Positions 17,217 to 22,367 of a DNA stretch of 64,000 nt are shown piece by piece. Numbering within the stretch: position 1 is the stretch's first letter; every line of letters begins with the position of its first letter. Below the pieces are notes generated by a model. It worked only from the letters and a program-made list of their open reading frames with translations. It had not been told where the DNA came from and searched no databases. The translations under genes were made by a program, and so were the position numbers. The stretch spans positions 64,001 to 128,000 of the forward strand of contig CAVWUU010000003.1 in NCBI GenBank assembly GCA_963758295.1, in the 5' to 3' direction. The stretch comes from Candidatus Eremiobacteria bacterium (lineage in GTDB: Bacteria; Vulcanimicrobiota; Vulcanimicrobiia; Vulcanimicrobiales; Vulcanimicrobiaceae).

Positions 17217-17244
17217 AAATCCGCTGACGTCGCCTCCGCGTTGA
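17217..17244 (+). promoter_or_regulatory. Predicted ECF promoter, copy 3 (near-leaderless transcript)
   Basis: AAATCC-N16-CGTTGA ending 8 nt before ATG 17253. Confidence 0.7.
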
Positions 17245-17252
17245 ACGACATC

Positions 17253-18530
17253 ATGAAAAAATACTACTCGGCAATTTTAGGCGCCGCGGTAATGATGCTC
17301 CTCGGCGTCGTTGCGGCACTTTACGGCGCAACTTTCACCCGTGCTTCCGATCATCAGGATTCACCGCTCACGGTGGGGCGGCCGGGAGCCGATATCACCG
17401 ACGTTTTCCTTTTCCCGGCTGCAAATCCGAAAAACGTGGTGCTTGCGATGGACGTGCACCCGTTGATCCCTGCCGGACTGAGCGATTCCGCGGCCTTCGA
17501 TCCTTCGGTAATGTATCAATTCAAAATCGATACGGCGGGAAGCTACCGGGAAAATAAAGTTATTCAGTTTCGCGCGGTCGGCGCAGGGGCCGCGCAGTAC
17601 CTTCAAATGTACGGACCGGCGGCGCCTGTTATGGCCGGAACAGCATCGCGCTGGGTAGGCTCGCCGCAAACGATCGCATTGAACCGTGTAACGCGATTGC
17701 CCGGCGGCATCAGCGTTTTTGCCGGTCCTCGACGGGAACCGTTTTATTTCGATTTGGCGCAGTTCTTCAAGATCGTGCCGGATAGAAACTTCAAAAGTCA
17801 GCCGCATCCGCCGATTGCTACGGCCAATTGTTTTCGAAAGCCGGATGTCGATTTCTTCCGAAATTACAACGTCCTTGCGCTGGCAGTGGAATTGCCGCGG
17901 ACCATGTTGGCTGCGCCGAGCGGCAAACTTGGGGTAATTCACCTGTATACTACGACCTCGCTTTCGCAGGGCTCGGGCGAATACGAACAGGTGGAACGTT
18001 TAGGGCGTCCGGCCATCAAAGAAACCTTCGAAACGTTCTCTGATCACGATGCCAGCAATCGCCGTTCGCCGTGGAATGACTCGGAGTTATCGCATTCGAT
18101 CGTCGCGTTTATGACGGCGCCTTCGCCGAATGGCGCGGGACGATCGCGTGAACTTGCCTCTGCGGTAGAAAAAGTGCTGATACCGGACGAACTCACGGCC
18201 GACCTTAGCGCACCCGGGCCGGCTGCCTATTTGGCTGTCGAAACGAAGGGCAAAAGCGCGCTCCCGACCGGCATCGTTCGTGTCGTACCGGAGGCCGGGC
18301 TTAAAGGCCTCAAAAAGTCGATTGCCAACAGGTCGCGCGATTTCGGCGGTCGAGATCTTTCGAGCCCCGTGATCGATCTTTCGCTCGGCGTAATTTTTGG
18401 TTCGCTCGGTCAAAAAGTTGGACTGGCAAAAGATGACGGGAAAGAAACCGCCTGTCTCACGAGCGACAACGTCGATGCAGGCTCTCGAGGCATTACTACC
18501 TCATTTCCGTATTACGGAGCGCCGATCTAA
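17253..18530 (+). CDS. Full-length DUF4331 family secreted protein
   Basis: Signal peptide ending TRA, then SDHQDSP; DITD; FAGPRREPFYFD; QVERLGRPAIKE; FGGR; FPYYGAP. Confidence 0.85.
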   Translation: MKKYYSAILGAAVMMLLGVVAALYGATFTRASDHQDSPLTVGRPGADITDVFLFPAANPKNVVLAMDVHPLIPAGLSDSAAFDPSVMYQFKIDTAGSYRENKVIQFRAVGAGAAQYLQMYGPAAPVMAGTASRWVGSPQTIALNRVTRLPGGISVFAGPRREPFYFDLAQFFKIVPDRNFKSQPHPPIATANCFRKPDVDFFRNYNVLALAVELPRTMLAAPSGKLGVIHLYTTTSLSQGSGEYEQVERLGRPAIKETFETFSDHDASNRRSPWNDSELSHSIVAFMTAPSPNGAGRSRELASAVEKVLIPDELTADLSAPGPAAYLAVETKGKSALPTGIVRVVPEAGLKGLKKSIANRSRDFGGRDLSSPVIDLSLGVIFGSLGQKVGLAKDDGKETACLTSDNVDAGSRGITTSFPYYGAPI

Positions 18531-18539
18531 GCGCGCATT

Positions 18540-18746
18540 TTAGCGGCTGCGCCGCAGTGCGCTCCCTTGCGATCGCAGCCGCCGCGCGATTTCGTCGTCG
18601 TCGAAGCGCTCGAGAAAGTCCTCGATGGCTGCTTCGGCGAGCGCCGACACGGAAACGGCATGCGTTGCTTTGAACGCGGTAAGCCGGCCGGCAAGGCGAT
18701 GTGGGATCGTGATCGTTAGACGTTTGAGGGACACCCGGGCTCTCAT
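18540..18746 (-). CDS. Small ribbon-helix-helix (CopG/MetJ-like) DNA-binding protein
   Basis: KRLTITIP strand, helix, SVSALAEAAIEDFL; preceded by the ECF promoter motif. Confidence 0.65.
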   Translation of the reverse strand: MRARVSLKRLTITIPHRLAGRLTAFKATHAVSVSALAEAAIEDFLERFDDDEIARRLRSQGSALRRSR

Positions 18747-18819: not shown

Positions 18820-19362
18820 GTGAGCGCCGTTGCGGAGATCAAAGACGACTTCGAGCTTTTCTACCGGCAATATCGGCCGCTCGTTTATGCCGTCGCTTTC
18901 AAAATCGTCCGAAACGCGCTTGACGCTGAAGACACCGTGCAAACGGTCTTCCTTAAAGTATGGAGCCGGCCCGGCGCATATCGCGGAGGAAACATCGAGA
19001 GCTGGCTCACTACGGTTACGAAGAACGCTTCGCTCGATTGCGTGCGACAATCGTGGCGTGTGAGCCCGTTCGCCTCTGCCGATGGGTATGCTGGCCGCCT
19101 TTCGCCGGGCGAAGACCTCCGGACCCGCGACTGCCGGGCGGCGGAAGATGAGGCCGTGCATCGCATCTCGGTCGCCGCGGTAATGAATGCCCTTGCGGAC
19201 CTCTGTCCCGAACAACGCGCCGCGATTGTAGCGGCCTTTGTGAAACAACAAACCCACCGGGGCATAGCCGACGGATCTTGTTTACCGCTCGGAACCGTGA
19301 AGACGCGCATTCGTTCGGGACTCGCGAAGCTGCGCCGTCGCTTCTCCGAAGAAGCGCCATAA
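18820..19362 (+). CDS. ECF sigma factor (SigK-like)
   Basis: Region 2 DAEDTVQTVFLKVW..SWL..N..D; region 4 LPLGTVKTRIRSGL. Confidence 0.92.
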   Translation: MSAVAEIKDDFELFYRQYRPLVYAVAFKIVRNALDAEDTVQTVFLKVWSRPGAYRGGNIESWLTTVTKNASLDCVRQSWRVSPFASADGYAGRLSPGEDLRTRDCRAAEDEAVHRISVAAVMNALADLCPEQRAAIVAAFVKQQTHRGIADGSCLPLGTVKTRIRSGLAKLRRRFSEEAP

Positions 19363-19368
19363 AAAGCG

Positions 19369-19393
19369 AAGGCGATCGCTCTGCGATCGCCTT
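19369..19393. terminator. Bidirectional intrinsic terminator
   Basis: Perfect 11-bp stem AAGGCGATCGC-TCT-GCGATCGCCTT between convergent genes. Confidence 0.8.
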
Positions 19394-19418
19394 TCACTAT
19401 CCCGACGGTGTTGTGGCG

Positions 19419-19934
19419 TTAGGCCTTCTTGCGACGGCCGCCGCGCGCGGCTTTTTTACGGCCTCCTGCGGCTTTACGCGTCGTTGCCTTTTTGCGTCCG
19501 CCGGTTGCCTTACGCGTCGTCTTCTTGCGTCCGCCGGTGGACTTTTTACGTCCGCCTGCCGCTTTTTTGCGTCCTGCGGTTTTCTTGCGTCCGCCGGTCG
19601 CCTTTTTGCGGCCGCCCGTCGACTTCTTGCGTCCTGCGGTCTTCTTTCTTCCGCCGGCTGCCTTTTTGCGTCCGCCGGTCGACTTCTTGCGTCCTGCGGT
19701 TTTTTTGCGTCCGCCGGTCGCCTTTTTCCGTCCGCCGGCGGCTTTCTTACGTCCGCCTGCGGCTTTACGTCCAGCGGTTTTCTTGCGTGCGCCGGTGGCT
19801 TTTTTACGGCCGCCCGTCGATTTGCGTCCTGCGGTTTTCTTACGTCCGCCGGCTGATTTGCGGCGGCTCGATTTGCGGCGCGTTCCGGATTCTTCGGCCA
19901 TCGTGCCACCGTTCATCATGGTATCGGAGTCCAT
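19419..19934 (-). CDS. Histone H1/Hc2-like basic repeat protein (13 GGRKK units)
   Basis: SD GAGGAGG 5 nt before ATG, sigma70 promoter upstream, terminator downstream; body made only of G,R,K,A,T,S. Confidence 0.8.
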   Translation of the reverse strand: MDSDTMMNGGTMAEESGTRRKSSRRKSAGGRKKTAGRKSTGGRKKATGARKKTAGRKAAGGRKKAAGGRKKATGGRKKTAGRKKSTGGRKKAAGGRKKTAGRKKSTGGRKKATGGRKKTAGRKKAAGGRKKSTGGRKKTTRKATGGRKKATTRKAAGGRKKAARGGRRKKA

Positions 19935-20004
19935 TCATTCCTCCTCGTCCCCCGGGGGACGAACAGCATTAATTATTGGACAGCGCAAAATGCGCTTTAA
20001 GCGC

Positions 20005-20033
20005 ACTATAAAGGATTTTTGCAAATCATGCAA
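20005..20033 (-). promoter_or_regulatory. Sigma70-type promoter of the histone-like gene
   Basis: Minus strand TTGCAT-N17-TATAGT. Confidence 0.7.
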
Positions 20034-20036
20034 ATC

Positions 20037-20114
20037 TGCGCGCGCGTCACACGCGTACGCGACGCACGCGCGCGTGTCGCATGCGTGCGCGTCACGCGTA
20101 CGCATACGCGCACG
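20037..20114. repeat. Alternating purine-pyrimidine tract (Z-DNA/cruciform-prone)
   Basis: 78 bp of RY alternation (CG/CA/TG-rich) with only 4 phase breaks; internal repeat GCGCGTCAC(AC)GCGTACGC occurs twice. Confidence 0.85.
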
Positions 20115-20196
20115 AGACGACGACACGACAAGACGAAATCACAACGATCAAAAGGTTTTCAGCGGTTCGAGTAGTCCATTGGTAGGGCCCGGGGGT

Positions 20197-20226
20197 TTGC
20201 CCGGGATTGACGGCCGGGAGTATACT
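20197..20226 (+). promoter_or_regulatory. Sigma70-type promoter of topA (probably leaderless)
   Basis: TTGCCC-N18-TATACT, 7 nt before GTG 20234, no SD. Confidence 0.6.
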
Positions 20227-20233
20227 AAGCCCC

Positions 20234-22367
20234 GTGAAAAAGCCCCTGATCATCGTCGAGTCGCCGACCAAGGCTCGGACGATCAAGAAGTTTCTCCCCG
20301 CGCGGTACGTCGTGAAGGCGTCCGTCGGTCACGTCCGCGATCTGCCGAAGAGTACGCTGGGTGTCGACGTGGAGCACGACTTCACGCCGAAGTATCTAAC
20401 GATCAAAGGCAAAGGCGACATTATCAAGGAGCTCAAGAGCGCGGTCAAAGGCGCGAGCGAAGTGTACCTCGCCACCGACCCCGATCGCGAAGGCGAAGCG
20501 ATTGCGTGGCACCTAGCCGAGCTGCTCAAGCTCGAGAACCCCAAGCGCATCGAGCTCCACGAGATTACTAAGGATGCCGCGCTCGCCGCTTTGAAGGACG
20601 CGCACCACATCGACATGGATCGCGTGAACGCGCAACAGGCGCGCCGCATCCTGGACCGTCTTGTTGGATACAAGATCTCGCCGCTGCTGTGGGCTAAGGT
20701 TCGCGGCGGCTTGTCGGCCGGTCGCGTGCAGTCGGTGGCGGTGCGGCTCATCGTGGATCGGGAACGCGAAATCGGCGCCTTCGTTCCAAAAGAGTATTGG
20801 ACCGTTACGGCTCAGTTGGCGAGAGACACGAAGAGCGATCTGGTGTTCCTTGCCGACCTGGTGGCCTTCAAGGGCGAGAAATACGAGATCCGTACAAAGG
20901 AAGAAACGGATCGGGTTCTAGAGGCGATCGATGGTGCACCCTTTACAATCGACTCGATCAAACGCCGAGAAGTAAAGCGAAATGCGCCGGCGCCCTTCAC
21001 GACTTCGACGCTCCAGCAAGAGGCCTCGCGCAAACTGCGAATCCGCGTGCGGCGCGCCATGCAAATCGCACAGGCGCTGTACGAAGGCGTAGATCTCGGC
21101 GGCTCCGAGGGCACCGTCGGTTTGATTACGTACATGCGTACCGACTCGACGCGCATCAGCGATCAGGCGCGGGAAGCGGCTCGCGAATTCATCGTCGACA
21201 CGTACGGCGAAGCGTTTCACGGCGGACGCCAACATAAGGTAAAAGAAGGCGCACAGGACGCGCACGAAGCGATCCGGCCTACCTCGGTTTTGCACACTCC
21301 GGAAAAAGTCGCGCACGTCCTCAAGCGCGACGAACTGCGTCTCTACACGATGATTTGGGAGCGGTTCGTCTCCTCGCAGATGGCCCCGGCGGTCTTCGAT
21401 CAGACGACTGTGGAAATCAAGGTCGCGCGATTACGGTTTCCGCGCGACCGGTAGCGTCATGAAGTTCGCGGGTTTCACCAAGGTGTACGAAGAGGGCCGC
21501 GATGAGGACGGCAAACAGCGCGGACGCGTACGGCTGCCGGAACTCACCGAGGGCGAAGTGCTCGACGTCCGTGCGATCGACCCGAAGCAGCACTTCACCG
21601 AACCCCCGCCGCGCTTCACCGAAGCCACGCTCGTCAAAGCGCTTGAAGAGAACGGCATCGGCCGGCCGTCGACGTACTCGACGATCGTCGATACGATCCA
21701 AGCTCGCGGCTACGTAACGCAAGAAGAACGGCGCTTCAAACCCACCGACATCGGCATCGCCGTGAACGATTTGCTGGCCGAGCATTTCAAAGACATCGTC
21801 GATCTCAAGTTCACGGCGGGCATGGAAGGCGACCTCGATAAAGTAGCCGAGGGCCACGAAGACTGGGTCGGGATTCTGCGCAGCTTCTACGGACCGTTTG
21901 CGACCGAACTCGAAGAAGCCGAGAAGAAACTTCCCAAGCTCGAAGTCAAAGACGAGCCGACCGACGAGATCTGCCAGAATTGCGCACGGCCCATGGTCAT
22001 CAAGACCGGACGTTTCGGCAAATTCATCTCGTGCACGGGCTATCCCGAATGCAAGACGACCAAACCGATCGTCAAAGACACGGGAGCGAAATGCCCCAAA
22101 GACGGCGGCATGATCGTGGAACGCCGGTCCAAGAAGGGACGCACGTTCTACGGCTGCGCAAATTATCCGAACTGCGACTTCGTGTCGTGGGATCGCGTAA
22201 TCCCCGAGCCCTGTCCGGTGTGCGGAAGCTACGTCGTCGCAAAGACGCGGCGCGGCGGCAACGTGCATCTGGAGTGTGCGGCGGATAAGGAACACGACGT
22301 GTCGTCGCTCGTGAAGCCCGCGCCGGGCGAAGAACCGACGGACGACCGGGAACTCGCCGAAGTTTGA
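20234..22367 (+). CDS. topA: DNA topoisomerase I with C-terminal zinc ribbons (frameshift near 21424)
   Basis: IVESPTKA, ATDPDREGE, SAGRVQS, ITYMRTDS, DAHEAIRPT, GIGRPSTY, C4 zinc ribbons. Confidence 0.97.

Follow-up and report, generated by a model that had tools for sequence, protein, structure and literature searches.

What holds 78 bp of alternating purines and pyrimidines in place between two divergent promoters, one of which drives the gene of a DNA-relaxing enzyme? The question is raised by a locus in a 64,000-nucleotide stretch of DNA from a Candidatus Eremiobacteria bacterium (GenBank assembly GCA_963758295.1, contig CAVWUU010000003.1, positions 64,001 to 128,000; the whole stretch is henceforth called the window and coordinates refer to it), which forms part of a genome (G000) of 3.03 Mb in 6 contigs with 60% G+C and a completeness of 82%. 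The tract (positions 20037 to 20114, no strand assigned) lies between the promoter of topA, encoding a type IA DNA topoisomerase I, and that of a gene for a basic, “histone-like” protein rich in lysine and arginine (KR-rich). As judged from aligned sequences of relatives, the purine–pyrimidine (RY) pattern itself is preserved, at a fixed place abutting the −35 element of the histone-like promoter. With confidence just short of even, and going by sequence comparison and a model of the transition from B-form to Z-form DNA, the tract is read here as a Z-DNA-prone element kept by selection in the control region common to both genes, where it would serve as a torsional buffer or switch with its main tie to the histone-like promoter; this reading is favoured because the B–Z transition is the property most specifically encoded by an RY pattern.

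The tract is composed of five alternating runs, hereafter modules, at 20037–20047 (11 bp), 20048–20061 (14 bp), 20062–20077 (16 bp), 20078–20092 (15 bp), and 20093–20114 (22 bp). Alternation holds at 73 of its 77 steps, and the four breaks are single-step phase slips (T to C, G to A, T to C, and again T to C). It begins 3 bp beyond the histone-like −35 and ends 82 bp from the topA promoter. A preliminary description of the locus had given coordinates and run lengths exactly, had placed the tract 3 bp from one of two divergent promoters and about 80 bp from the other, and had seen nothing comparable in the window, where the next-longest alternating run is indeed 15 bp. The tract is also the most extreme one genome-wide: 78-bp intervals contain 41.5 alternating steps on average (standard deviation 4.5), and the best other locus reaches 60. 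By a maximal-segment score (+1 per alternating step, −3 per other step), the tract scores 61 and the runner-up in the 3.03 Mb scores 24; 83 segments of the genome score at least 17 (about one per 36 kb), and among hundreds of alternating seeds of 12–20 bp none goes beyond 24 apart from the tract. The regions upstream of gyrA and gyrB in the same genome score 6 and 8 and carry no comparable RY tract. With runs of 11–22 bp, the modules show the alternation, the richness in CG and CA/TG steps, and the length (more than about 8–12 bp) of Z-DNA-forming sequences, and the pyrimidine–purine (YR) steps over 24 related tracts were counted as CG 294, TG 51, TA 49, and CA 46. Elsewhere in G000, contig C6 carries three near-identical alternating runs of 18 bp (ATGCGTACAYACRTACAC) at 132049–132604, whose spacing of exactly 269 bp suggests a 269-bp tandem repeat.

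The independently assembled genomes G000, G002, and G003, all of one genus, carry orthologous tracts, of which two measure 78 bp and one 77 bp. Modules of 11/14/16/15/22 bp are found in both G000 and G003, and G002 has modules of 11/14/28/24 bp after a 3-bp and a 2-bp insertion or deletion (indel). Between G000 and G003 the tract differs by 16 transitions and 0 transversions over 78 ungapped bp, between G002 and G003 by 10 transitions and 0 transversions, and between G000 and G002 by 11 transitions and 0 transversions using a pairwise aligner or by 19 and 2 using MAFFT. Four-fold degenerate sites of topA served as the neutral yardstick and gave 27 transitions and 53 transversions at 200 sites (G000–G002), 8 and 14 at 112 sites (G000–G003, from the first 660 nt), and 11 and 30 at 112 sites (G002–G003). 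The numbers of transversions expected in the tract are 20.7, 9.8, and 20.6 for these pairs in the same order, and the probabilities of observing none are 4e-11, 3e-5, and 4e-11 (1.6e-8 for at most two transversions between G000 and G002). Since transitions are the only differences possible between in-phase alternating sequences, what the test really tells is that each lineage kept alternation while neutral sites gained 12–27% transversions. The spacer between tract and topA promoter is largely unalignable among the three genomes (17 transitions and 27 transversions in 82 bp between G000 and G002), and in a contig of a related strain it is replaced by 80 different letters (joint 20110>20193).

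Further variants were taken from Logan contigs of public sequencing runs (shares of at most 0.32, related strains, single low-depth contigs with rare variants dropped). For the X1/X3 contig, which stems from one study, 14 of 21 differences are listed, of which the 8 inside the tract are all transitions and the 6 outside are all transversions; the 3 tract differences listed for the X5 contig are likewise all transitions. Among the differences listed for these contigs, which omit rare variants, there is no indel inside the tract. In a second, Aquilonibacter-type clade (clade 2), the tracts of L062, L063, L090, L094, and L111 are 43–62 bp long and contain 2, 0, 3, 0, and 0 non-alternating steps, respectively, at pairwise four-fold transversion divergences of 12–28%. 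Propensity rather than sequence is thus conserved among G000, G002, and G003 and in clade 2, and has decayed in the same-genus genome G004. Two points left by the preliminary description were thereby settled: orthologous tracts in independent assemblies and in contigs of public runs show that the tract is no read artefact, and it is RY alternation, not the exact sequence, that relatives share, both within the genus and in the second clade.

For a wider comparison, topA loci were drawn from 40 related genomes, named genome contigs, and metagenome contigs, and 350 bp upstream of topA were scanned; 70 Eremiobacterota loci, each with at least 200 bp upstream, were counted. These loci are not all independent (TopA is identical in L094 and L158 and in L048 and L125), and the tallies take in four unpublished genomes (G004, G013, G024, and G036). 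A segment score of at least 17, corresponding to a tract of at least 20 bp, was found upstream of topA in 25 of the 70 loci, and the highest score among 117 control loci of other phyla was 16. Tract length across loci ranges from 20 to 78 bp. For 17 of these 25, the tract starts 1–3 bp past the TGCAAN that belongs to the histone-like −35, to which it is anchored. The gap to the topA −35, by contrast, can be anything from 6 to 160 bp, and the earlier idea of a switch that couples the two genes needs amending on this point. The histone-like promoter is recognisable in form in 49 of the 70 loci, and a perfect alternating run of at least 8, 10, 14, and 20 bp starts within 4 bp of its motif in 25, 20, 16, and 12 of these, respectively. 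When promoter and leader of the KR-rich gene were together searched for at the DNA level, 12 out of 41 genomes gave a single copy each, always beside topA.

Clade statements refer to a quick TopA tree with SH-aLRT (Shimodaira–Hasegawa-like approximate likelihood ratio test) support, from which L030 and L081 were omitted because of stops. Long tracts fall into at least three of its clades, namely G000 with G002 (clade 1), the Aquilonibacter-type clade 2, and G014 with a Cybelea-type clade (clade 3), where lengths are intermediate; in the class-level family f3 they do not occur. Genome-wide, G002 and G014 have perfect alternating runs of at least 24 nt solely upstream of topA, and in 11 other genomes with such runs these are located elsewhere. 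A single 24-nt alternating run in G005 was set aside, as neither GTATACT nor TGCAAA lies beside it and topA was not found in this 63%-complete genome. The spacer of L036, L044–L049, L062, and L123–L126 contains an element resembling repetitive extragenic palindromes (REP-like; CCTTCGAC..GCTCAGGATAAAC / GTCATCCTGAGC) in loci with a short tract or none; REP-like inserts seem to come and go in the spacer.

B–Z energetics were modelled with the dinucleotide, junction, and Z–Z energies of Table 1 of PMC3024258 in a partition function for a 5-kb domain that admits B–Z transitions only and up to 5 runs. In this model, the tract takes the Z-form with a probability of 0.15, 0.62, 0.905, and 0.98 at superhelical densities (σ) of −0.035, −0.04, −0.045, and −0.05, respectively, and is the dominant Z-forming site of the domain from about σ −0.04, so that a B-to-Z transition is predicted at an attainable negative superhelical density. 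The 22-bp module is the most favourable one (critical σ −0.0425), and flipping of the full 78 bp costs 76.8 kcal/mol, absorbs 14.7 turns, and has a critical σ of −0.055 in the 5-kb domain. For the clade-2 tracts, in which phase slips are lacking, 32–42 bp are predicted to be flipped already at σ −0.04. By these calculations, the tract is set apart by its capacity and its strict alternation, not by its threshold.

In the favoured reading of a Z-prone buffer or switch, the tract would act as a structure-encoding, “flipon”-like spacer that abuts the −35 of the strong histone-like promoter and fills part of the shared control region. Under growing negative superhelical stress, be it global or produced by the two diverging RNA polymerases, the five modules would flip one by one from the B-form to the left-handed Z-form, starting at about σ −0.04 and completing at about −0.055, and would jointly take up to about 14.7 helical turns. 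The flip would clamp local torsion and could serve as a buffer or relief valve; the B–Z junction, set 3 bp upstream of the −35, may alter the upstream DNA geometry of the histone-like promoter, and flipping may set the stress that reaches the topA promoter with its G/C-rich discriminator and probably leaderless transcript. The uniqueness of the tract, the upkeep of its RY pattern against transversions, its anchoring at the −35, and its thermodynamic competence under the published energies are shown by the analysis, whereas Z-DNA formation in the cell, and an effect on either promoter together with its direction, are inferred. According to PMC8422995, negative supercoiling activates promoters with a G/C-rich discriminator in several bacteria, and Z-DNA transitions in the vicinity are listed there among the modifiers. 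On this ground a coupling is plausible.

A bolder form of this idea, which we consider possible and rather doubtful, is that Baltobacteraceae-type Eremiobacterota carry a selected bacterial flipon, a multi-module Z-DNA “torsional capacitor”, located at the −35 of the gene for a highly basic nucleoid protein and common to it and the divergent, leaderless topA, that exerts graded control over a DNA compactor and a relaxase, possibly with feedback at its own promoter. Successive flips of the modules would turn transcription-generated negative supercoiling into graded expression of the two proteins, and the Arg/Lys-rich product may shift the B–Z equilibrium at its own promoter and so close a feedback loop. 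Basic proteins are said to stabilise Z-DNA; in the open-access literature, only incidental mentions of polyarginine together with Z-DNA were found.

Several observations weigh against a Z-DNA function of the tract. In 45 of the 70 loci a tract scoring at least 17 is lacking (short or absent), which qualifies the expectation of its presence in relatives that the 25 other loci bear out; in the unpublished same-genus genome G004 it has decayed to 57 of 77 alternating steps; and in L016 and L081 the two promoters stand almost back to back without any tract. The variable length and these three observations show the tract to be dispensable. Tract transitions between G000 and G003 run at about three times the four-fold rate (16/78 versus 8/112), and a special mutational process may therefore act at the tract; methyl-CpG deamination is not an obvious cause of these transitions, since a search of the 82%-complete G000 for C5-cytosine methyltransferases (PF00145) gave none, by which this source is weakly ruled out. 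The preliminary description had suggested a genome-wide ranking; by alternation the tract has no equal in the genome, but by single-run B–Z free energy it ranks only 63rd, 42nd, 6th, and 2nd at σ −0.0425, −0.05, −0.06, and −0.07. Runs of (CG)7–8 elsewhere nucleate earlier (critical σ −0.037 versus −0.0425), and masking of the tract shifts the residual σ only from −0.0373 to −0.0413 at an imposed σ of −0.06. Each of the four phase slips adds about 6.3 kcal/mol in the model, and relatives have kept them, all four in G003 and three in G002. Finally, TA, the least favourable alternating step, occurs at about twice the frequency predicted by independence, and the palindrome CGCGTACGCG is present in 10 of 24 distinct tracts versus 1.7 expected from RY-preserving shuffles. 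Such enrichment of TA and CGCGTACGCG points to sequence-level constraint or shared ancestry and is unexpected for pure Z-DNA optimisation.

The last of these counts leads to a first rival explanation, in which the tract is a protein-binding platform: a regulator or nucleoid protein would recognise an array of degenerate sites centred on palindromes like CGCGTACGCG or CGTACG, and the alternation would be a by-product of the site sequence. We regard it as unlikely, as we do its more detailed form, in which the bound protein, possibly the neighbouring KR-rich product, adjoins the −35 on its upstream side and turns the histone-like promoter up or down. CGTACG is present in 15 of the 24 tracts (5.8 expected), the TA steps mostly stand in CGTACG context (23 cases), and the consensus units reported by Tandem Repeats Finder (TRF) are ACGCGTACGCG and GCGTAC; in addition, the segment GCGTACGCGACGC is common to G000 and G014, a genome of another genus. 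A bound protein would also suit the position of the tract start, which in 17 of 25 loci lies 1–3 bp off the −35, in the region touched by activators and by the alpha subunit of the polymerase. However, CGCGTACGCG of G000 reads CGCGTGCGCG in G002 and GCGCATGCGCG in G003, with the RY class kept at every position, and a sequence-reading protein is unlikely to accept all transitions and yet bar all transversions. Nor does a tract length between 20 and 78 bp fit such a platform well; genome-wide, CGCGTACGCG is not over-represented (27 observed versus 29 expected), and the enrichment counts come from related, non-independent tracts.

A locus-specific mutational by-product without any function is about as improbable in our view: a (CG)n seed near a strong promoter may have expanded by slippage or by templated changes among GCGTAC-like units. 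RY alternation would then persist automatically because the units are of even length and themselves alternate, and the many transitions would reflect DNA that is frequently unwound or takes a non-B form. Length and sequence vary widely among relatives, many of which have no tract; the clade-2 tracts resemble (CGCGYR)n, with a 12-bp indel between L062 and L063; and tandem structure, though weak, can be seen in G000. The roughly three-fold raised transition rate between G000 and G003 would likewise suit a mutational origin, and according to part of a preprint (10.64898/2025.12.30.697008) Z-DNA-forming sequences are genetically unstable in bacteria. Yet the modules of G000 and G003 have the same lengths and those of G002 almost the same, which argues for little slippage turnover, and transversions are absent where about 10–21 were expected. 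Moreover, hundreds of 12–20-bp seeds in the 3.03 Mb have produced no other locus above a score of 24, and tracts recur at this one position in no fewer than three clades of the quick TopA tree.

All remaining other readings together would take up a small share of the probability. A cruciform or hairpin switch, in which a quasi-palindromic tract extrudes under negative supercoiling, is scarcely credible: the tract is partly self-complementary as described earlier, with many imperfect inverted repeats (arms 72–87% complementary, among them 15-nt arms at 87%, and one pair of perfect 9-nt arms) and a single-strand DNA folding energy of −35.1 kcal/mol, but it has no long perfect arms, arm pairing is not kept among G000, G002, and G003, and the folding energy is no better than that of shuffles preserving RY pattern and composition (z +0.43 to −1.97 over 9 tracts; −1.03 for G000, where 16% of the shuffles were equal or better), so that the cruciform alternative offered by the preliminary description is not upheld.

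Other candidate identities were weighed as well. A simple-sequence contingency locus would contain a long perfect repeat of 1–7 nt, whereas the tandem structure of the tract is weak (TRF scores 32–41 with 62–77% matches for the units named above) and its longest pure CG run is 10 bp (GCGCGCGCG, inside the 11-bp first module). An UP element, which is A/T-rich and located at about −40 to −60, was ruled out by the G+C content of the 24 tracts (704 of 923 positions). Coding was rejected for the open reading frames (ORFs) of 51 aa and 63 aa that cross the tract, as relatives differ in tract length by numbers that are not multiples of 3. An RNA element was discarded, as a search of Rfam with positions 19300–20400 on both strands gave no family at threshold and only chance-level matches to miRNA and viral models far below the thresholds. 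Alternating palindromes occur at expected frequencies genome-wide, which leaves no sign of restriction-site avoidance or enrichment.

The two promoters that flank the tract differ in build. The histone-like promoter (20005..20033, minus strand) has the −10 TATAGT at 20005–20010 and the −35 TTGCAT at 20028–20033 with a spacer of 17; a promoter scan of the minus strand returned TTTGCA-18-TATAGT at 20034..20005, the neighbouring register of TTGCAT-17-TATAGT. Over its −35 region (20020–20036), TGCAAATC occurs twice, 9 bp apart (ATGCAAAT, an octamer-like string), and only the distal copy is kept in relatives. On the other side, the non-conserved spacer (20115..20196, no strand assigned, 82 bp) is followed by the topA promoter (20197..20226, plus strand) with the −35 TTGCCC at 20197–20202, a spacer of 18, the −10 TATACT at 20221–20226, and a G/C-rich discriminator of the type that responds to negative supercoiling. 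The start codon of topA is GTG, 7 nt past the end of the −10, and no ribosome-binding site is visible; the topA mRNA is probably leaderless, given this short distance. The string TTGCC..TTGAC..GTATACT(A/T)AG(G/C)CCC, followed by GTG, is kept across the family loci. Embedded in the topA promoter, 8 nt before the −10, is another TTGAC, whose flanking CCCGG/CCGGG inverted repeats are kept in relatives.

topA itself (20234..22367, plus strand) matches the Pfam families Toprim, Topoisom_bac, and Zn_ribbon_Top1 on two ORF pieces. Its frame is broken near 21430–21458 (region 21425–21460), where ORFs 20234–21454 and 21459–22367 meet and the +1 frame goes on with GFRATGSVMKFAGF; the open frame is 422 aa long, compared to 695–1300 aa (mostly 720–770) in relatives with a query-spanning match. 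In G003, likewise an assembly of few contigs, topA is broken at another place. The frame break is probably an assembly indel rather than the mark of a pseudogene, and may account for the low completeness scores.

The KR-rich gene (19419..19934, minus strand) is an ORF for 171 aa with about 20 GGRKK-type repeats and an acidic N-terminus (MDSDTMMNGG). It is preceded by a 5′ leader (19935..20004, minus strand) with a GGAGGA ribosome-binding site and inverted repeats, namely the perfect 9+9 palindrome TCGTCCCCCGGGGGACGA at 19945–19962 just upstream of GGAGGA and GCGC...GCGC repeats at 19983–19995 and 19992–20004 that overlap the likely start site. Palindrome and GCGC repeats are kept in the family loci with variable loops, and could be mRNA-stabilising hairpins or operators. 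CCCCCGGG in the leader (19949–19956) exactly complements CCCGGGGG in front of the topA promoter (20188–20195), and a regulator site shared by the two regions is possible. The protein has no match in Pfam (E-value up to 0.001) or NCBIfam (up to 0.1); its closest clusters in the Atlas are Vulcanimicrobiota hypotheticals, and PF07382 (HC2) occurs in 28% of the members of the third cluster, which is a neighbour in feature space and not a family-model match. The name “histone-like”, as given in the preliminary description, accordingly describes K/R-rich repeat composition alone and is not backed by a family match. Both the KR-rich N-terminus and the divergent position beside topA are kept in relatives. 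Its DNA is a tandem array with periods of 21, 39, and 60 nt, and the repeat number probably varies among relatives, given 54 indel columns in the alignment of G000 and G002. Neighbours on this side are genes for a DUF4331 protein (17241–18530) and an ECF-type (extracytoplasmic function) sigma factor (18820–19362), with an ORF of 68 aa without family match between them (18540–18746, minus strand).

A selected role for Z-DNA in bacteria is an old open question, and a short, defined locus makes it testable. Studies of prokaryotic Z-DNA are few according to part of the 2025 preprint cited above, a survey of 281,139 genomes whose accessible text leaves topoisomerase unmentioned, and a 2026 review (PMC13463272) names the torsional buffer as a leading hypothesis, with limited direct in vivo evidence in bacteria. 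No description of an RY tract at topA was found in the open-access literature, the scope of which leaves aside older subscription papers and bioRxiv supplements. At the present locus, letters have changed and the RY pattern has stayed fixed at a place where twin-domain supercoiling should peak, beside the gene for a supercoil-removing enzyme. Natural variants are at hand as controls: the 78-bp tract with slips (G000), slip-free tracts of 43–46 bp (clade 2), a decayed tract (G004), and none at all (L016 and L081). If the bolder reading of a selected flipon is true, the transition-only signature would be the first evolutionary evidence of purifying selection on Z-DNA propensity in a bacterium.

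In the twin-domain model, negative supercoiling is high upstream of an active promoter, and Rahmouni and Wells reportedly found in 1989 that engineered Z-DNA tracts are stabilised in vivo by transcription-driven supercoiling. These (CG)n and (CA)n tracts, put in front of promoters on E. coli plasmids, resemble the present one in being alternating tracts beside an active promoter. They were inserted by experimenters, whereas the present tract is natural, has four phase slips and mixed CG, CA, TG, and TA steps, is RY-conserved among relatives, and lies between topA and the gene of a nucleoid-type protein. A natural prokaryotic counterpart is the “RY box” of the Halobacterium bop promoter, said to have been described by Yang et al. 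in 1996 as about 11 bp near the TATA box and start site; it, too, would be a promoter-proximal RY tract with supercoiling-dependent transcription and non-B DNA. In contrast to the archaeal case, the present tract is bacterial, spans 20–78 bp among loci, lies upstream of the −35, and is known from evolutionary instead of genetic evidence.

In Haemophilus influenzae, phase-variable TA repeats lie between the divergent promoters of hifA and hifB, and the two loci share a short-unit alternating repeat in a common divergent control region with lengths that differ among relatives. The hif repeats are perfect, stand between −35 and −10, and switch expression on and off by slippage; the present tract is imperfect, stands upstream of the −35, and is nearly constant in length within the genus. 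Homeostatic supercoiling control of the topoisomerase genes of E. coli was reportedly described by Menzel and Gellert in 1983. The E. coli topA promoter is stimulated by negative supercoiling and gyrase promoters by relaxation. Both topA promoters have a G/C-rich discriminator, the role of which is described in PMC8422995. Sensing in E. coli is ascribed to promoter melting and not to a Z-prone neighbour, and gyrA and gyrB of the present genome lack an RY tract. Eukaryotic promoter flipons (PMC11293857, PMC8053131, and PMC5066173) make use of Z-alpha proteins and nucleosomes, whereas no match to the Z-alpha domain (PF02295) was obtained here in a search in which the control genomes were equally silent. 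As far as these accounts go, the flipons and the present tract have in common an encoded capacity to flip to Z-DNA near start sites under the torsion of transcription, and a propensity that is conserved rather than the sequence.

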